In this document: positions 3,207-11,847 of the stretch, piece after piece
Numbering within the stretch: the first letter of the stretch is position 1
Layout of the letters: each line of letters opens with the position of its first letter
IMG/VR virus record: IMGVR_UViG_2531839331_000012
Reading direction: 5' to 3' (one strand)
DNA length: 44,457 nt
Origin: a virus
Lineage: Duplodnaviria; Heunggongvirae; Uroviricota; Caudoviricetes
Translations under genes and position numbers: made by a program
The notes under the pieces: generated by a model
What the model saw: the letters and a program-made list of their open reading frames with translations, nothing else
The model's database searches: none
Told to the model about the DNA's origin: nothing

Positions 3207-3737
3207 ATGAAAAAAGATTCGTATCCTTATTTGATTTGCATGACAGTTTCAGGGCTGATCTTTATTTTCCTTTTCTTCTGGTGGCGGGCAGATATCTACA
3301 GGGTCACGTTTCTTAATCAGAGTATATCCCACTATTACATTCTGTTTAGCATGGGAATAGCTTTTCTGTTATCTCTGTTTTGGGTTAAGAAGGGGATAGT
3401 AAAACAAAGAGGCTGGAAGAGTCTGTCAGCATACCTTAAGGTTTATGCAGGGATGTGCATATTTGCAGGATTTTTTCTGATTATACCCCTTACGACACTA
3501 ACTTATTTTTTGCCTGGAGAGACATCGTCTTATGTTGCACCGTATCGGTATACTTCCGGTAGTTCAAAAAGTTGTTCTGGAGCTGAGGTGGATGACCCCG
3601 ATCTACATGAGAATATTCGCATTTGCTATCCGTATGGCAATTATGAGTACGATAATATTATCTATGTTGAAAAGAAAATTAATATATTAGGTGCGGTAGT
3701 GACATATGCACAGACCGCGCGTGATGATACTGAATGA
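3207..3737 (+). CDS. Hypothetical integral membrane protein (3 predicted N-terminal TM helices plus Cys-containing C-terminal domain); AT-rich moron in ea8.5/ea22 slot
   Basis: 176-aa ORF from ATG 3207 (ORF track gives longer 3135 start); strongly hydrophobic segments; opposite orientation to flanking leftward operon; AT-rich. Confidence 0.55.
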   Translation: MKKDSYPYLICMTVSGLIFIFLFFWWRADIYRVTFLNQSISHYYILFSMGIAFLLSLFWVKKGIVKQRGWKSLSAYLKVYAGMCIFAGFFLIIPLTTLTYFLPGETSSYVAPYRYTSGSSKSCSGAEVDDPDLHENIRICYPYGNYEYDNIIYVEKKINILGAVVTYAQTARDDTE

Positions 3738-4224: not shown

Positions 4225-4245
4225 AAAAAAGGAGCCTGTAGCTCC
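4225..4245 (-). terminator. Putative rho-independent terminator on minus strand (GGAGCCTGTAGCTCC hairpin followed by T6)
   Basis: Hairpin 4231-4245 and A6 4225-4230 on + strand. Confidence 0.45.
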
Positions 4246-4267
4246 CTGATGATTTTGCTTTTCATGT

Positions 4268-4579
4268 TCATCGTTCCTTAAAGACGCCGTTTAACATGCC
4301 GATTGCCAGGCTTAAATGAGTCGGTGTGAATCCCATCAGCGTTACCGTTTCGCGGTGCTTCTTCAGTACGCTACGGCAAATGTCATCGACGTTTTTATCC
4401 GGAAACTGCTGTCTGGCTTTTTTGATTTCAGAATTAGCCTGACGGGCAATGCTGCGAAGGGCGTTTTCCTGCTGAGGTGTCATTGAACAAGTCCCATGTC
4501 GGCAAGCATAAGCACACAGAATATGAAGCCCGCTGCCAGAAAAATGCATTCCGTGGTTGTCATACCTGGTCTCTCTCAT
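4268..4579 (-). CDS. Hypothetical protein in lambda orf61 position (start uncertain; ATG at 4483 would give 72 aa)
   Basis: 103-aa ORF; upstream end coincides with lambda orf61 start by collinearity with orf63/orf60a. Confidence 0.4.
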   Translation of the reverse strand: MRETRYDNHGMHFSGSGLHILCAYACRHGTCSMTPQQENALRSIARQANSEIKKARQQFPDKNVDDICRSVLKKHRETVTLMGFTPTHLSLAIGMLNGVFKER

Positions 4580-4751
4580 CTGCTTCTGCTTTCGCCACCA
4601 TCATTTCCAGCTTTTGTGAAAGGGATGCGGCTAACGTATGAAATTCTTCGTCTGTTTCTACTGGTATTGGCACAAACCTGACTCCAATTTGAGCGAGGCT
4701 ATGTGCCATCTCGATACTCGTTCTTAACTCAACGGGAGATGCTTTGTGCAT
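4560..4751 (-). CDS. Hypothetical protein, lambda orf63 equivalent
   Basis: 63-aa ORF collinear with lambda orf63. Confidence 0.7.
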   Translation of the reverse strand: MHKASPVELRTSIEMAHSLAQIGVRFVPIPVETDEEFHTLAASLSQKLEMMVAKAEADERDQV

Positions 4752-4912
4752 ACAGCTCCCCGTTTATTATTTATCTCCTCAGCCAGCCGCTGTGCTTTCA
4801 GGGGATTTCGGATAACAGAAAGGCCGGGAAATACCCAGCCTCGCTTCGTAACGGAGTAGACGAAAGTGATCGTGCCTACGCGGATATTATCGTGAGGATG
4901 TTTCATCGCCAT
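4724..4912 (-). CDS. Hypothetical protein, lambda orf60a equivalent
   Basis: 62-aa ORF collinear with lambda orf60a. Confidence 0.7.
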
Positions 4913-5583
4913 TGCTCCCCAAATACAAAACCAATTTCAGCCAGTGCCTCGTCCATTTTTTCGATGAACTCCGGCACCATCTCGTCAAAACTCGCCATGT
5001 AATTTTCATCCCGCTCAACCACGACATAATGCAGGCCTTCACGCTTCATTCGTGGGTCATAGTTGGCAAAGTACCAGGCATCTTTTCGCGTCACCCACAT
5101 GCTGTACTGCACCTGGGCCATGTAAGCTGACTTTATGGCCTCGAAACCACCGAGCCGGAATTTCATGAAATCCCGGGAGGTAAACGGGCATTTCAGTTCA
5201 AGGCCGTTGCCGTCACTGCATAAACCATCGGGAGAGCAGGCGGTGCGCATACTTTCGTCGCGATAGATGATCGGGGATTCAGTAACATTCACGCCGGAAG
5301 TAAACTCAAACAGGGCTCTGGCGTCGTTCTCGTACTGTTTTCCCCAGGCCAGCGCCTTAGCATTAACTTCCGGAGCCACACCGGTGCAAACCTCAGCCAG
5401 CAGGGTGTGGAAGTAGGACATTTTCATGTCAGGCCACTTCTTTCCTGAGCGGGGCTTTGCTATCACGTTGTGAACTTCTGAAGCGGTGATGACGCCGAGC
5501 CGTAATTTGTGCCATGCATCATCCCCCTGTTCGACAGCTCTCACGTCGATCCCGGTACGCTGCAGGATAATGTCCGGTGTCAT
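4903..5583 (-). CDS. exo: Lambda exonuclease (Red alpha)
   Basis: 226-aa ORF matching recalled lambda Exo. Confidence 0.97.
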
Positions 5584-6365
5584 GCTGCCACCTTCTGCTC
5601 AGTGGCTTTCTGTTTCAGGAATCCAAGAGCTTTCACTGCTTCGGCCTGTGTCAGTTCTGACGATGCGCGAATGTCGCGGCGAAATATCTGGGAACAGAGC
5701 GGCAATAAGTCGTCATCCCATGTTTTATCCAGGGCGATCAGCAGAGTGTTAATCTCCTGCATGGTTTCATCGTTAACCGGAGTGATGTCGCGTTCCGGCT
5801 GACGTTCTGCAGTGTATGCAGTATTTTCGACAATGCGCTCGGCTTCATCCTTGTCATAGATACCAGCAAATCCGAAGGCCAGACGGGCACACTGAATCAT
5901 GGCTTTATGCCGTAACATCCGTTTGGGATGCGACTGCCACGGCCCCGTAATTTCTCTGCCTTCGCGAGTTTTGAATGGTTCGCGGCGGCATTCATCCATC
6001 CATTCGGTAACGCAGATCGGATGATTACGGTCCTTGCGGTAAATCCGGCATGTACAGGATTCATTGTCCTGCTCAAAGTCCATGCCATCAAACTGCTGGT
6101 TTTCATTGATGATGCGGGACCAGCCATCAACGCCCACCACCGGAACGATGCCGTTCTGCTTATCAGGGAAGGCGTAAATTTCTTTCGTCCACGGATTAAG
6201 GCCGTACTGGTTGGCGACGATCAACAATGCGATGAACTGCGCATCGCTGGCATCACCTTTAAATGCCGTCTGGCGAAGAGTGGTGATCAGTTCCTGTGGG
6301 TCGACAGAATCCATGCCGACACGTTCAGCCAGCTTCCCTGCCAGCGTTGCGAGTGCTGTACTCAT
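5580..6365 (-). CDS. bet: Red beta single-strand annealing protein
   Basis: 261-aa ORF matching recalled lambda Bet. Confidence 0.97.
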
Positions 6366-6370
6366 CCGTT

Positions 6371-6667
6371 TTATACCTCTGAATCAATATCAACCTGGTG
6401 GCGGGCAATAGTTTCAACCATGTACCGTATGTGTTCTGCCATGCGTTCCTGAAACTCAACATCGTCATCAAACGCACGGGTAATGGCTTTTTTGCTGGCC
6501 CCGTGGCGTTGCAAATGATCGATGCATAGCGATTCAAACAGGTGCTGGGGCAGGCCTTTTTCCATGTCGTCTGCCAGTTCTGCCTCTTTCTCTTCACGGG
6601 CGATCTGCTGGTAGTGACGCGCCCAGCTCTGAGCCTCAAGACGATCCTGAATGTAATAAGCGTTCAT
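6371..6667 (-). CDS. gam: Gam, RecBCD inhibitor (98-aa short form only)
   Basis: Matches C-terminal 98 aa of lambda Gam ([15 protein letters not shown]...); good SD AGGAG upstream; the longer 138-aa lambda form is not available in this sequence. Confidence 0.9.
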
Positions 6668-6743
6668 GGCTGAACTCCTGAAAATGGCTGTGAAAATATC
6701 GCCCGCGAAATGCCAGGCTGATTAGGAAAACAGGAAAGGGGGG

Positions 6744-7034
6744 TTAGTGATTCAGGCCGTTACCGCGTCCGTCGAGAAAAACTTCCACGAGCAAATCACG
6801 GGTATAAGTGCGCTCGATGCCGCGATGCAGATAAAGCCGTCCGCGTAAATTAGCTGATGCAGTCCAGGTACCATCTTTGTGTTTGACCAGCATTCCTGGC
6901 ATGACCGCACCTCGATTAACGGTCTGCGTTCCGTAATGTTGATGAACCATAAAAACTCCTGCCCGTAAGCTGGGCTGCTGAACATATAAAGACTTCTGCG
7001 CGTATTCAGGCGGTGGATGGCCGCCGGTTGTCAT
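6744..7034 (-). CDS. Hypothetical protein, first gene after pL; possible Kil-like host cell-division inhibitor
   Basis: 96-aa ORF with SD GAGGCGG; weak resemblance from memory to Rac KilR (ASAN...VFLDGRG motifs); not lambda kil/cIII. Confidence 0.35.
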   Translation of the reverse strand: MTTGGHPPPEYAQKSLYVQQPSLRAGVFMVHQHYGTQTVNRGAVMPGMLVKHKDGTWTASANLRGRLYLHRGIERTYTRDLLVEVFLDGRGNGLNH

Positions 7035-7224
7035 AACTAAGCCGCCTCGTTGAAGCGACTAAGGTATGAAATGTTGAGTTAATTTCAGCTGGTCACACCG
7101 ACGTTCACGCGTCCGTTTCACCCCTCGCACTCCCCGAAGCCTGCTGAAATTCAAACTGCGGATCTAAGCGGTCATCGCAACGGTGAATCAGGTAGTTGCC
7201 GTATCGTTGTGTTGTTGCGATGAA

Positions 7225-7300
7225 CTTATTTAAAACTATAGTTGTTTTATCGTCAACAACAAAAGTTGTTTTATTGGTTGTTTTAGATATAACTGGTTGT
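7225..7300 (-). promoter_or_regulatory. Putative pL promoter with OL operators: -35 TTGACG (complement of 7251-7256), 17-bp spacer, -10 TTAAAT (complement of 7228-7233); repeated GTTGTT/AACAAC half-sites
   Basis: Near-identical to the pR promoter at 8284-8312; five GTTGTT hexamers in inverted/everted arrangement. Confidence 0.6.
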
Positions 7301-7392
7301 ATTTAGGATGGATTTATTTTGTGACTTGAATCGCATAGCGATAACTGAAGCGAGGTTATGGTGGTTTTTTTAACGGTGTGTGTGATGAGGGG

Positions 7393-7424
7393 AGGGCAAA
7401 AGAAAACCCGGCACGGTGACCGGG
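7393..7424 (-). terminator. Rho-independent terminator downstream of repressor gene (CCCGG-loop-CCGGG followed by TTTTCTTTTG on minus strand)
   Basis: GC-rich hairpin 7407-7424 and A-rich 7395-7406 on + strand. Confidence 0.55.
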
Positions 7425-7545
7425 ATTCTTACGCCGTTAGGTAAAGATATTATTGCGGTGGCTTAATATTACTACCTAGAGCAAAGATAGGAATTAGTTC
7501 TTTACTGAATGAGCACAATGCCCAGTTGATAATTTTTAATTGGTA

Positions 7546-8235
7546 CTACCCATGCTTCCTATATGTCTGCGGCATGCTCCCAATAACCTTACCGAAGATG
7601 AACACCCGGTTCATCTCGTCTTTCTCGATCGGGTCCCACGGTGAGTAGCTTTTGTTATCAGAGATGACCAGCAGCTTATTCTTCATCATTTGCAGGCGCT
7701 TTACATGGGCTGTGTCGTCGTACAGAAACGCATAGATACCATCACCGTCGAAAGATTTAACTGTGATATCAACGAACAGCAGATCACCTGGTTCGATCGT
7801 TCCTGACATGCTGTCACCACGCACGTTAATGATGCGGATATTTTCCGCCTTCCTACCATCGAACATGTGACGAGCATCGTCAAACGAGTACTCAACCGAG
7901 CGTAGAACTTCTACAAACTCACGGTTGATGACTCCCGGCCCAGCACTGACTTCTATATCAAGAACGTCAATCTTGAAGTATTTGGAATGGCTGACAGTTG
8001 ATTGTATTGGTTGCACTGTACTGTCTGACATATTTCCAACGCCAGAAGATAACCATTCTGCGCGCACACCCAAAGCGTTCGCGATCTCCACGATTTTAGT
8101 TGTTTGATTAGCTTTCCCTGTTTCGATTTTCTGAATAGCAGCCTGGCTAACCCCGACCAAATCCCCAAGCGCCTTTTGTGTAAGGCCTCGCGCTAATCTG
8201 GCTTCTTTAAGTCTTTCTGAGAGTGTTGTTTTCAT
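7546..8235 (-). CDS. CI-like prophage repressor (N-terminal XRE HTH, C-terminal S24 LexA-like autopeptidase)
   Basis: 229 aa from ATG 8235 (MKTTLSERLKE...); HTH region, Ala-Gly cleavage site (VSAGPG), GDSM serine and downstream Lys; divergent from cro. Confidence 0.85.
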   Translation of the reverse strand: MKTTLSERLKEARLARGLTQKALGDLVGVSQAAIQKIETGKANQTTKIVEIANALGVRAEWLSSGVGNMSDSTVQPIQSTVSHSKYFKIDVLDIEVSAGPGVINREFVEVLRSVEYSFDDARHMFDGRKAENIRIINVRGDSMSGTIEPGDLLFVDITVKSFDGDGIYAFLYDDTAHVKRLQMMKNKLLVISDNKSYSPWDPIEKDEMNRVFIFGKVIGSMPQTYRKHG

Positions 8236-8276
8236 AGTCCAAATGTACAACCAAGGTTTTATTCCATCAAACGAAA

Positions 8277-8312
8277 ATGGTTGTTGACTAAAAACAACCA
8301 TAGTTTTAATCT
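8277..8312 (+). promoter_or_regulatory. OR/pR: 25-bp palindrome ATGGTTGTT-N7-AACAACCAT (8277-8301) overlapping pR -35 TTGACT (8284-8289) and -10 TAATCT (8307-8312)
   Basis: Read directly; SD GGAGG 8330-8334 precedes cro ATG 8340. Confidence 0.65.
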
Positions 8313-8339
8313 TGATTCAAATTAACCACGGAGGTTGTT

Positions 8340-8570
8340 ATGAACCCAGCTATCAAAACAGCGATCAATATCGTTGGTTCACAAAAGAAACTGGGCGCTG
8401 CTTGCGAAGTTTCACAGCAGGCCGTCTATAAGTGGCTTCACAACAAAGCAAAGGTATCCCCTGAACATGTCGGCAGCATTGTTACGGCTACTGGGGGAGT
8501 AGTGAAGGCATACCAGATTCGCCCGGATCTTCCGAAGTTGTTTCCACACACCGAAAAGAACGCAGCTTAA
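8340..8570 (+). CDS. cro: Cro-like repressor (Cro/YdaS-family HTH)
   Basis: 76-aa ORF divergent from repressor gene, strong SD; position and size. Confidence 0.75.
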   Translation: MNPAIKTAINIVGSQKKLGAACEVSQQAVYKWLHNKAKVSPEHVGSIVTATGGVVKAYQIRPDLPKLFPHTEKNAA

Positions 8571-8582
8571 ATTTCCATTTCA

Positions 8583-8595
8583 CGCTCTTTAACAA
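8583..8595 (+). promoter_or_regulatory. boxA-like antitermination element CGCTCTTTAACAA (nutR position)
   Basis: Exact match to the rrn/lambdoid boxA consensus GCTCTTTAACAA; no obvious boxB hairpin follows. Confidence 0.5.
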
Positions 8596-8639
8596 TAAGC
8601 AATCAACTTAACAGTCAATTCAAACTAAAGGAGTCAATT

Positions 8640-9179
8640 ATGCAACCACTTACATACCAACAGACTAGCGGATTTAGCCCGACTGCGGTGATAAATCGTT
8701 CTCAAACAAAACAGGTGCCAGGCCACGAAAAAATCCGTGATGCCGTCCGCGCCTGGTCGGCTGTAGATAATCAGGATGTCGTTGCCACACTCATTGTGAA
8801 TGAGTATCGGGAGCAGGGCGGCGGCACCATCGATTTCCCTGATGATGTCAGCCGTGCACGCCAGAAGCTGTTCCGCTTCCTCGATAACAAATTCGATTCT
8901 GAAAAATACCGAAATAATGTGCGTGAACTGACCCCGGCAATTCTGGCGGTACTACCGCTGGAATATCGCGGTTACCTGGTTGAGCAGGATAGCTTCATGG
9001 CTAGGTTGGCTGAAATGGAAAAGGAACTCAGTGAGGCAAAACAGGCTGTCATTCTCAACGCACCACGCCACCAGAAACTGAAGGAAATTAGTGAAGGTAT
9101 TGTGTCGATGTTTCGTGTGGACCCAGATCTGGCTGGTCCATTGATGGCGATGGTTACTACCATGCTGGGGGCGATATGA
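8640..9179 (+). CDS. Hypothetical protein in cII position (possible CII-analogue regulator)
   Basis: 179-aa ORF with strong SD AAGGAG; not lambda CII; assignment by position only. Confidence 0.4.
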   Translation: MQPLTYQQTSGFSPTAVINRSQTKQVPGHEKIRDAVRAWSAVDNQDVVATLIVNEYREQGGGTIDFPDDVSRARQKLFRFLDNKFDSEKYRNNVRELTPAILAVLPLEYRGYLVEQDSFMARLAEMEKELSEAKQAVILNAPRHQKLKEISEGIVSMFRVDPDLAGPLMAMVTTMLGAI

Positions 9180-9265
9180 CAGGTTCAGAAATGGCGAAAG
9201 CCGGTCTGCTGGAACAGAACCGACTTTCAGGTGCAAATCGTAACACACTCATTGCGGGAGGAATT

Positions 9266-10195
9266 ATGGCAAACACTGCTGAGATATTCAATTTTCCAGT
9301 GCCGGATGCGGCACAAAAGGAGCCGCGCGTGGCAGATCTCGATGATGGTTATACGCGCATTGCAAATGAGTTGCTGGAAGCTGTGATGCTGGCCGGATTA
9401 ACACAGCACCAGCTTCTGGTCTTCCTGGCTGTCATGCGCAAAACATATGGCTTTAATAAAAAACTGGATTGGGTGAGCAACGAGCAACTTTCCGAGTTGA
9501 CCGGGATATTGCCGCACAAGTGTTCTGCTGCAAAAAGTGTTCTGGTAAAGCGTGGGATTTTTATTCAGAGTGGGCGGAATATCGGCATTAATAATGTGGT
9601 CAGTGAATGGTCAACATTACCCGAATCAGGTAAGAAAAATAAAGTTTACCTGAAAGAGGTAAATTTACCTGAATCAGGTAAGAAAAGTTTACCCAAATCA
9701 GGTAAAGGCGTTTACCCGAATCAGGTAAACACAAAAGACAAACTAACAAAAGACAATATAAAACCTTTTTCGTCCGAGAATTCTGGCGAATCCTCTGACC
9801 AGCCAGAAAACGACTTTCCTTTGGAGAAACTGGATGCTGCAATTCAGAGCGGCAGCAAGTGGGGGACAGCAGAAGACCTGACCGCCGCAGAGTGGATGTT
9901 TAACATGGTGAAGACCATCGCGCCCTCAGCCAGAAAACCGAATTTTGCAGGGTGGGCTAACGATATCCGCCTGATGCGTGAACGTGACGGACGTAACCAC
10001 CGCGACATGTGCGTGCTGTTCCGCTGGGCATGCCAGGACAACTTCTGGTCCGGTAACGTGCTGAGTCCGGCCAAACTCCGCGACAAGTGGACCCAACTCG
10101 AAATCAACCGTAACAAGCAACAGGCTGGCGTGACAACCGGAAAATCAAAACTCGACCTGACAAACACTGACTGGATTTACGGGGTGGATTTATGA
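9266..10195 (+). CDS. O: Replication initiator O (ori-binding)
   Basis: 309 aa from ATG 9266 (SD GGGAGGA); N- and C-terminal similarity to lambda O; contains iterons in coding sequence. Confidence 0.9.
   Translation: MANTAEIFNFPVPDAAQKEPRVADLDDGYTRIANELLEAVMLAGLTQHQLLVFLAVMRKTYGFNKKLDWVSNEQLSELTGILPHKCSAAKSVLVKRGIFIQSGRNIGINNVVSEWSTLPESGKKNKVYLKEVNLPESGKKSLPKSGKGVYPNQVNTKDKLTKDNIKPFSSENSGESSDQPENDFPLEKLDAAIQSGSKWGTAEDLTAAEWMFNMVKTIAPSARKPNFAGWANDIRLMRERDGRNHRDMCVLFRWACQDNFWSGNVLSPAKLRDKWTQLEINRNKQQAGVTTGKSKLDLTNTDWIYGVDL
9617..9765 (+). repeat. Replication origin: five ~18-19-bp iterons (TTTACCYGAAWCAGGTAAR) followed by an A-rich tract
   Basis: Iterons at about 9617-9634, 9645-9663, 9664-9682, 9688-9706, 9711-9729, then CACAAAAGACAAACTAACAAAAGACAATATAAAACC. 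Confidence 0.85.
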
Positions 10196-11592: not shown

Positions 11593-11847
11593 AAATAATT
11601 TGTTTTTAAACGACTAAAATATGGAGGCTCGTATATTTATATGGGCCTCGTTTTATGCTTTTTGTTAATGTCTTTAGTTTTTATTCATTCTTTTGTGCTT
11701 TCAAGATTATGGTGTAAGAAAATTGCAATACGATTATTGTTGTATATTCAAGATAATGTGACCTTAATTGTCTTTTTAAATAAAAATTAAACAAAAATCA
11801 TATCTCACCACTAAGGTTTATAAAAGCATACTTTAGCAGGTGTCACC

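Follow-up and report, generated by a model that had tools for sequence, protein, structure and literature searches.

A conserved 5'-terminal stem-loop of neither put nor nut type at the predicted start of the pL leader in N-less lambdoid prophages of Escherichia coli

Background

5'-Terminal stem-loops protect Escherichia coli mRNAs from 5'-end-dependent decay, and the hairpin of the ompA 5' untranslated region is said, in work by Emory, Bouvet and Belasco from 1992, to stabilise its mRNA. Structured RNAs are also found in the early-left leaders of lambdoid phages. The nutL site of phage lambda, composed of a boxA and a short hairpin with a GNRA-like pentaloop, is located between pL and the first early-left gene and is read by the N protein. 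The put RNAs of HK022, and also of HK639, HK75, O276, CobraSix, phiEt88 and UPF_BP1, stand after pL in phages devoid of N, measure ~70 nt and consist of two adjacent stems with the motifs GAACGG, CGUCGG and GGAUGA. In the HK022 system related copies follow pL and pR (putL and putR), and the RNA suppresses terminators by acting in cis on RNA polymerase, by way of the zinc-binding domain of beta'; a cryo-electron microscopy (cryo-EM) structure is available for their helices (PMC9378689). The present work deals with the leader that lies between pL and the kil gene on the minus strand of a tailed-phage record of IMG/VR (IMGVR_UViG_2531839331_000012), the whole analysed stretch of which, 44,457 nucleotides (nt) long, is hereafter named the window. 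An earlier note, made from the sequence alone, had described positions 7035-7225 as a leader without N that opens with a 10-base-pair (bp) hairpin, and had suggested a put-type antiterminator RNA, a nut-like site or, as a fallback, terminator-poor early operons. Our comparative analysis indicates that this hairpin is a modest conserved 5' stem-loop, neither put- nor nut-type, and that the finding is mostly an ordinary one.

Each of the described systems resembles the window in part. As in ompA-type stem-loops, the stem would, from the predicted start, begin at the first transcribed nucleotide, at the head of a long untranslated leader and a long operon; its 8 bp are modest, however, for a loop that is unusually large at 32 nt. 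The window leader occupies the place of nutL, although N, a leader boxA and the short pentaloop hairpin are all missing, the only boxA being found after cro. With the put phages the window shares the lack of N and a structured RNA after pL, and two of them, UPF_BP1 and phiEt88, even have its type of operator and promoter; however, the window carries one long-loop hairpin instead of the two motif-bearing stems. At the very 5' end the window resembles HK639, CobraSix and S9-5, whose first ~22 nt are homologous and whose AUCG at +1 likewise pairs back. These phages form a local helix of 5-8 bp around a loop of 8-9 nt and have put behind it, whereas in the window the favoured partner is 33 nt away and there is no put.

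Results and Discussion

Promoter pL and the predicted transcription start

The leftward sigma-70-type promoter announced in the earlier note, together with its likeness to pR, was confirmed. On the minus strand, the -35 hexamer TTGACG (7251-7256), placed inside the GTTGTT/AACAAC operator repeats (OL), is followed after a 17-nt spacer by the -10 hexamer TTAAAT (7228-7233), and the sequence between this hexamer and A7221 is AAGTTC. An alternative -10 hexamer, TAAATA (7227-7232), would have an 18-nt spacer. The rightward promoter pR (TTGACT at 8284-8289, 17 nt, TAATCT at 8307-8312) has about 30 nt in common with pL, in the block GTTGTTGAC...ACAAC.ATAGTTTTAA, and the operator repeats enclose both promoters. 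A consensus promoter scan missed pL, TTAAAT having T instead of the usual A at position 2, and for this reason the pL call rests on comparative evidence.

One and the same leader was found joined to five distinct upstream modules, each of them with its own canonical promoter in equal register. Besides the window type (class A), these are TTGATA-17-TATTAT-CACCAT-(A/G) in class B, TTGACT-17-TATTGT-CATGCT-A in class C, TTGATA-17-TATTAT-CATTCC-A in class D and TTGATA-17-TATTAT-AAATCC-A in class E. BLAST homology between classes begins at window position 7221/7220, so that the mosaic boundary between immunity modules coincides with the predicted +1 (A7221, minus strand). In addition, Salmonella phage UPF_BP1 and Erwinia phage phiEt88 have the window's promoter type (GTTGTTGACA...ATAGTTTTAAAT) with putL at equal distance, and since this putL can fold only if transcription includes its very first bases, they support the start register. 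The identification of this promoter as pL, with a predicted start at about A7221, is therefore well supported by sequence comparison. No N gene is annotated in Escherichia phage PhiR34_1 (99.6% identical to the window), none was detectable in the window, and no open reading frame (ORF) of 60 amino acids (aa) or more is present in 7035-7225 on either strand, in agreement with the N-less operon of the earlier note.

As an observation apart, UPF_BP1 (L349), a P22-like phage, and phiEt88 (L348) contain at ~150-200 the operator and pL type of the window (GTTGTTGAC...TTAAAT) and then putL, so that different leader modules occur behind one immunity type. Loci L095 and L233 present the reverse case, an HK022-type promoter with a non-put leader.

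The 5'-terminal stem-loop

On the plus strand, TCATCGCAAC (7172-7181) and GTTGCGATGA (7214-7223) form a perfect 10-bp inverted repeat. The repeat of the earlier note is real, although its second arm lies at 7214-7223 and not at 7213-7222, and its loop is of 32 nt and not 31. Read in the direction of transcription (minus strand), the element is composed of the 5' arm UCAUCGCAAC (7214-7223), a C/A-rich loop (7182-7213) that varies between classes, and the 3' arm GUUGCGAUGA (7172-7181), followed by a nearly invariant linker GACCGCUUAGAUCCGCAG (7156-7173). In the comparison with type-H leaders (see below), part of this linker, CGCAGUUUGAA, was seen to resemble the tail GCGCAGUAGGUUUGAA found after other leader types. 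If +1 is A7221, as the promoter geometry of the five classes predicts, the stem would begin within the 0-4 nt from the transcript 5' end that are expected of a stabilising stem-loop. Its location at the predicted 5' end, as first described, holds, but not its full length: only 7221-7214 (AUCGCAAC) of the 5' arm is predicted to be transcribed, the RNA stem would comprise 8 bp (AUCGCAAC with GUUGCGAU), and the remaining two of the ten pairs fall outside the transcript.

The reading that we favour, tentatively and with somewhat less than even confidence, is that of an N-independent, terminator-poor early-left leader whose 5'-terminal stem-loop protects the mRNA end. Under this reading pL would fire at A7221 and the first 8 nt, AUCGCAAC, would pair with GUUGCGAU 33 nt downstream, leaving no free 5' end. 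The stem-loop would shield the pL mRNA from 5'-end-dependent decay (RppH, RNase E) in an ompA-like manner and would leave RNA polymerase unmodified. The rest of the 271-nt leader would consist of a family-specific G-rich spacer, which should be a poor Rho substrate, and a widely shared hairpin module before kil. We infer the stabilising role from the known behaviour of 5'-terminal stem-loops in E. coli, and the exact start site from promoter geometry.

Related loci were collected through the identical Kil protein (80 IMG/VR loci) and through the leader pattern (120 more); in the latter the 3' arm is invariant by construction, and all diversity statistics were thus taken from the Kil-retrieved set. 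Nucleotide diversity (pi) was 0.004 in the 5' arm and 0.000 in the 3' arm (over 7181-7174), whereas the loop gave 0.033, the 18 nt that follow the stem-loop (the linker) 0.0065, the middle domain described below 0.032 and the leader as a whole 0.023. At the 4-fold degenerate sites of kil, gam and bet it reached 0.068-0.084. Because leader diversity is below that of these sites, the leader is judged to be under purifying selection, the arms and the linker being its most constrained part.

It might be argued that the repeat has no function at the RNA level and is incidental, the first ~65 nt being conserved as a junction at which immunity modules recombine or as an initial transcribed sequence that matters for promoter escape, with the pairing merely carried along. 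We consider this somewhat unlikely, but several data speak for it. At eight places the window contains a perfect 10-bp inverted repeat whose loop does not exceed 40 nt, shuffled sequences give 1.9 register hits, and one such repeat per window is near chance expectation. The 57-nt hairpin RNA (dG of -8.6 kcal/mol, z = -0.93) is matched in folding by 38 of 200 shuffles, and the whole 191-nt interval gives z = -0.53. The mosaic boundary falls exactly at +1, the start AUCG(A/C)AAC is common to many unrelated leaders, and in the type-H locus L293, which begins with AUCGCAAC like the window, it pairs with nothing comparable. The behaviour of the pairing between classes points the other way, as does the far lower variability of the arms (pi of at most 0.004) with respect to the loop (0.033). 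In class C the loop and part of the arm have been replaced, yet a 6-bp 5'-terminal stem (AUUGCA/UGCGAU) is kept at +1. Classes D and E lengthen the stem, to 9 bp in D (dG of -21.3, z of -2.65) and to 10 bp in E (dG of -19.2, z of -2.37), where one internal A.C mismatch is offset by two extra pairs. Their loops are 6 nt longer and hold an inner stem, which reads GGG/CCC in D, GCGG/CCGC in E and ACGG/CCGU in A, with one compensatory pair. The partner also changes with the 5' strand, from CGCAAC/GUUGCG here to CGAAAC/GUUUCG in S9-5 and, in loci of Silvania, Enterobacter and Kluyvera, to GACAAC/GUUGUC extended by an A-U pair. Nucleotides 1-5 are paired with a predicted probability of 0.84-0.97 in classes A-E, whereas the shuffled controls give 0.25-0.35 (A-start) or 0.5-0.6 (G-start).

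The protective stem-loop reading has its own difficulties. The start at A7221 is predicted, from a promoter with an atypical -10 hexamer, and the class A stem is energetically ordinary. No true compensatory double change was found in the outer stem; it is weakened, without compensation, by two singletons from separate sequences, L053 (7216 A>U) and L079 (7179 U>G). The 5' sequence is common to all classes by descent, and the kept pairing could reflect sequence conservation alone. Terminator-like hairpins are present further down both early operons (4247-4229, minus strand; 11624-11649, plus strand). Lastly, a 5'-terminal stem is not general in other N-less leader types. The idea of a universal feature of N-less pL transcripts was discarded: in 75 leaders the mean pairing of nucleotides 1-5 was 0.35, against 0.33 in shuffled sequences, and only a few others share the signal with the window family.

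Comparison with put, nut and other known elements

A put covariance model was constructed from six putL sequences (HK022, HK639, CobraSix, S9-5, phiEt88 and UPF_BP1), on the basis of the helices that are nested in the cryo-EM structure (PMC9378689). The model gave 98.8 bits to HK022 putL, 93.4 bits to HK639 putL and 43 bits (E = 2e-8) to HK022 putR, on which it had not been trained. No match was obtained in 7035-7225, and an unfiltered search of 6500-9500 reached no more than 10.2 bits, at a place inside gene O. Neither was a second, putR-like copy of the leader detected in the window above 12-nt chance matches, and the cro-cII spacer is unstructured (dG of -3.7, z of -0.44). The put-like reading of the earlier note was abandoned on these two grounds. 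At Rfam, a search of window positions 6000-10000 with E values up to 10 returned only chance microRNA and small RNA (sRNA) matches outside the leader; the put/nut search proposed in the earlier note thus gave nothing in the leader, in a database devoid of a put family. Scans of HK022, HK639-type and type-H loci at the gathering threshold indicated that Rfam lacks both put and type-H families, the HK022 locus giving no match.

The pL transcripts of HK639, CobraSix, S9-5 and L353 begin with AUCGAAAC... and fold a small hairpin at +1, with put 4 to 60 nt later; the first 22 nt of the window and HK639 are identical at 17 positions. Since these put phages carry the homologous AUCG... hairpin upstream of a separate put, the +1 hairpin is a module of its own and its identification as put, or a put variant, was rejected.

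With regard to nut, the leader contains no match to boxA (CGCUCUUA or GCUCUUUAACAA) within 2 mismatches of 12, and no boxB-type hairpin, searched for as a 5-bp stem with a GAAAA, GAAGA or GACAA loop. With no N gene either, the nut-like reading could not be upheld. The only exact boxA match of the window is at 8584-8595 on the plus strand, after cro. This observation stands by itself: a perfect rrn-type boxA, CGCTCTTTAACAA (8583-8595, plus strand), directly follows cro in the position of nutR, lacks a hairpin behind it and accompanies the class A immunity module in at least 65 loci. By recruiting host NusB/NusE it may give the pR operon an N-independent anti-Rho protection.

A related proposal is that the stem-loop, or the linker region 7156-7181, is a site for a trans-acting factor (a protein or small RNA encoded elsewhere) following nut-like logic, or a switch in which AUCG at +1-4 pairs either locally, with CGAU at +16-19, or in the distal stem. 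No stretch of the leader is indeed more invariant than 7156-7181 (pi of at most 0.0065), and AUCG has two alternative partners. The local form is seen in HK639 (AUCGA/UCGAU) and in class D (AUCGC/GCGAU), one compensatory pair distinguishing the two; moreover, the lone perfect boxA in the pR operon leaves room for the use of host Nus factors by the phage. No candidate factor is encoded in the phage, however, and the leader itself has neither boxA nor boxB. The loop sequences are not conserved between classes, and class A has a very weak local helix of 4 bp. Taken together, these data make a trans-acting site or a switch quite improbable. An ops/RfaH site at GGCGGC was also discarded, by eye, for want of the T found at position 6 of ops. 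Full-text literature searches with the leader and type-H sequence strings found no paper.

A small arginine-rich reading frame

A small arginine-rich ORF of under 60 aa, of the type that the earlier note had named as an objection to an N-less operon, does occur in 7035-7225. It is a 31-aa ORF with a TTG start, MNFSRLRGVRGVKRTRERRCDQLKLTQHFIP (7059-7154, minus strand), in a poor start context with one exception, a possible GTG at 7121 that would yield the 20-aa peptide MKRTRERRCDQLKLTQHFIP. If either frame encoded a tiny N-like peptide, the leader would not be N-less. The motif KRTRERR resembles the arginine-rich motifs of the N proteins of lambda and P22, GGAG is present 7 nt before GTG 7121, and the common variant 7116 A>G is synonymous. 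The variants of the 31-aa ORF comprise 5 synonymous and 11 non-synonymous sites, frameshifts are present in five distinct sequences, the stop codon has become CAG in 44 of 56 distinct sequences, and seven of the eight class D changes are non-synonymous. No Pfam or PHROG match was obtained with the 31-aa ORF, whose arginines arise from CGN codons in a CG-/G-rich stretch. Furthermore, the peptide is too short for the NusA- and polymerase-binding parts of N and has no boxB as a binding target. The 31-aa ORF was judged non-coding and rejected as a mini-N from its substitution pattern, its frameshifts, the loss of its stop and the lack of a family match, and we regard an N-like peptide in this interval as very improbable.

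The start of kil and the hairpin module that precedes it

The earlier note took a 96-aa ORF starting at 7034 as the first gene of the operon. This is an over-extension. Cross-genus homology begins at 6950, and ATG 7034 is paired in a conserved hairpin. The PHROG 294 (Kil) match covers residues 20-96 of this ORF, the Kil proteins of Citrobacter, Kluyvera, Enterobacter, Silvania and Pseudocitrobacter show 79-87% identity with nucleotide homology starting exactly at 6950, and AGGAG is found 5 nt upstream of ATG 6950. A 68-aa Kil is likewise annotated in other phage records (4A7, HK225). The first gene of the pL operon is kil (6744-6950, minus strand; 68 aa; phrog_294, E = 1e-38), which encodes a KilR-type FtsZ inhibitor, and the leader has a length of ~271 nt. 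A 77-aa 'hypothetical protein' of PhiR34_1 (record positions 4508-4741) corresponds to window 6752-6985 on the minus strand, in a frame that differs from that of Kil; the frame conserved across genera in this region is the Kil frame, 6950-6744.

The module upstream of kil (7068-6951, minus strand) begins with a covarying hairpin, CAUACC...UUAUG (7032-7068), in the alignment of which CAUA pairs with UAUG. This is the first element of a module common to phi80, HK225, HK639 and Enterobacter and Klebsiella phages. In these phages and in IMG/VR contigs, 14 different stem sequences adopt one fold shape (-9.8 to -19.8 kcal/mol), the stem interior having been fully replaced through compensatory changes. 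ATG 7034 forms part of its paired 3' foot and would be sequestered. An invariant small hairpin, GGCGG-CCAUCCA-CCGCC (7009-7025), comes next, and its nucleotides, read as codons, also give the GGHPPP of a mini-ORF (MTTGGHPPP...) that includes a polyproline run. The peptide C-terminus is not conserved, the mini-ORF stopping after 10 aa in class D and 21 aa in phi80 and being frameshifted in L175. The sequence GAAGUCUU, which follows this hairpin and has GUUCCGCCAGCCUGGCGACAAGGGCA as its counterpart in other genera, is conserved in differing reading frames between phages. The lack of conservation of the peptide C-terminus and the out-of-frame conservation of GAAGUCUU argue that the module is conserved at the nucleic-acid level. 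The kil-proximal element (ACGCGCAGAAGUCUU ... GUUCAGCAGCCCAGCUUACGGGCAGGAG; 6951-7008) includes the kil Shine-Dalgarno sequence, before which the element GUUC(C/A)GC...GGCA stands last.

The same module is also present in L005, L006, L007, L008, L345 and L350-L469, and it can stand before genes other than kil. In Citrobacter and Kluyvera prophages (L090, L093-L096) an extra segment of ~130 nt, with a long stem GCUUCGCGGUGGUG...CACCACCAGCGAAGU, separates the kil-proximal element from kil. In the early-left region of HK225 (L005), positions 3413-3510 of the minus strand matched the Rfam family isrB, an Hfq-binding sRNA, with 38.2 bits against a gathering score of 35 bits.

The type-H three-way-junction RNA

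In many N-less lambdoid phages a ~65-nt three-way junction, here called type-H RNA, directly follows pL. It was found in mEp237, SEN34, SPN3UB, SfV, SfII, SfIV, ST64B, phiNP, YeP1-3, Pantoea AH07 and 55 IMG/VR loci, with examples at ~2280-2400 in L096, 3926-4024 in mEp237 (L470), 4845-4943 in ST64B (L472) and 4511-4611 in SfV (L471), the last three on the minus strand. Helix P1 is CCACC/GGUGG, GUCAUC/GAUGAC or GCGAA/UUCGC, P2 is GGC-AGGAC-GCC and P3 covaries; the junction ACGAAGUAGC is conserved, the loop reads GGCAUAYGAA, and compensatory changes affect 5 of 12 pairs. There is one copy per genome, in the left operon only, and it is unannotated and absent from Rfam. Model scores were 110.9 bits for mEp237, 67 for ST64B and 59.8 for SfV, and type-H RNA did not match the put model. 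We know of no earlier description of this RNA, which is a candidate new leader RNA. Like the leader of the window, it stands right after pL in N-less early-left operons and leads into the kil-proximal element; its 5 covarying pairs and conserved junction nucleotides, however, have no equivalent in the window middle domain. In the window the best type-H scores, 6.2 and 5.5 bits, are noise. The kil-upstream hairpin module and the type-H junction, both undescribed, are better candidates for new regulatory RNAs than the 5' hairpin.

The G-rich middle domain and the need for antitermination

Between the linker and the kil-upstream module lies a G-rich middle domain (7079-7153, minus strand), predicted to form a stem (7151-7143 with 7089-7081) around two hairpins (dG = -27.3, z = -1.16). 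Predicted pairs are lost, in no case with compensation, through the common variants 7137 U>C and 7081 U>C. With ~6 bits in the covariance model and these broken pairs, the domain was rejected as a diverged type-H RNA or a real three-way junction.

Of 99 distinct contexts of other phages, 93 have an intrinsic terminator (GC-rich hairpin plus T-run) directly before the kil-upstream module; in phi80 this is the terminator after N, and the exceptions include L353, where put abuts the module. In the window family the count is 0 of 32 distinct contexts, and the leader has no tL1-type terminator. The fallback of the earlier note, a terminator-poor early operon, fits these numbers. A Rho-utilisation site was discarded too: the C/G ratio, with a median of 1.17 for the strand, is 1.47 over the first 78 nt and falls to 0.45-0.55 in the G-rich middle. 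Further down, terminator-like hairpins are located after exo (4820-4842, minus strand), between orf61 and a TraR-like gene (4229-4247, minus strand) and after the emrE moron (11624-11649, plus strand), and for this reason some readthrough mechanism may still be needed if transcription from pL is to reach int, and that from pR to reach Q, in the absence of N.

Such a mechanism could reside in the first ~150 nt, if the 5' stem-loop, the invariant linker and the G-rich domain together formed a new cis-acting RNA that renders the polymerase termination-resistant, as a put analogue without sequence similarity. The phage has no N, the domain sits at the put position of the same-promoter phages (UPF_BP1, phiEt88) and of L353, the leader is very widespread and under apparent purifying selection, and other N-less relatives have elaborate covarying RNA at this position, while the hairpins just mentioned would give it something to act on. 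It is nevertheless an improbable explanation. The leader resembles neither put nor type-H RNA and has no copy in the pR operon, common variants break the middle-domain helices without compensation, and folding z-scores range from -0.5 to -1.2. The terminator usual before the kil module is absent here. Finally, a leader of only ~55-60 nt, made up of a 6-bp hairpin and then the kil-proximal element, serves many N-less prophages of Citrobacter, Kluyvera, Enterobacter and Silvania.

Genome context

The window derives from a DLP12/lambda-like phage, with 99.6% identity to PhiR34_1, as stated above, and 98.9% to phage Turner. The PhiR34_1 annotation is lambda-like, with lambda-type heads and tails and a DLP12-type accessory set (emrE, ybcK-ybcO, rusA, Q and an ompD/nmpC-like porin). 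The order on the minus strand is cI (8301-7546), an intrinsic terminator that closes the cI transcript upstream of OL/pL (7397-7424; CCCGGTCACCGTGCCGGG then TTTTCTTTTG), the operator/promoter region, the non-coding stretch, kil, gam (6667-6371), bet (6365-5580) and exo (5583-4903). On the plus strand, cro (8340-8570) is followed by a YdaT-type cII-like gene (8640-9179; Pfam YdaT_toxin, E = 8.5e-30), O, P and ren. Repeated TTACCTGAT-type units within gene O (~9618-9734), which are probably replication-origin iterons, produced spurious weak matches to microRNA, rliD and type-H models.

Conclusions

The leader was found in 2210 of 5426 complete E. coli genomes (~41%), in whose prophages it is annotated in none. 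For this family the gene calls are corrected, kil starting at 6950 and ATG 7034 being part of a hairpin, and an N-independent leader without a tL1-type terminator sets expectations for the way in which kil, gam, bet and exo are switched on after induction. If the stem does stabilise the transcript, it would represent a compact natural 5' cap element. Should the leader instead prove to be a new cis-acting antitermination RNA, it would be a third solution beside N/nut and put, used by the N-less lambdoid prophage family that is most common in E. coli to read through downstream terminators, and may parallel the function of type-H RNA at the same position in SfV, ST64B and mEp237-like phages.

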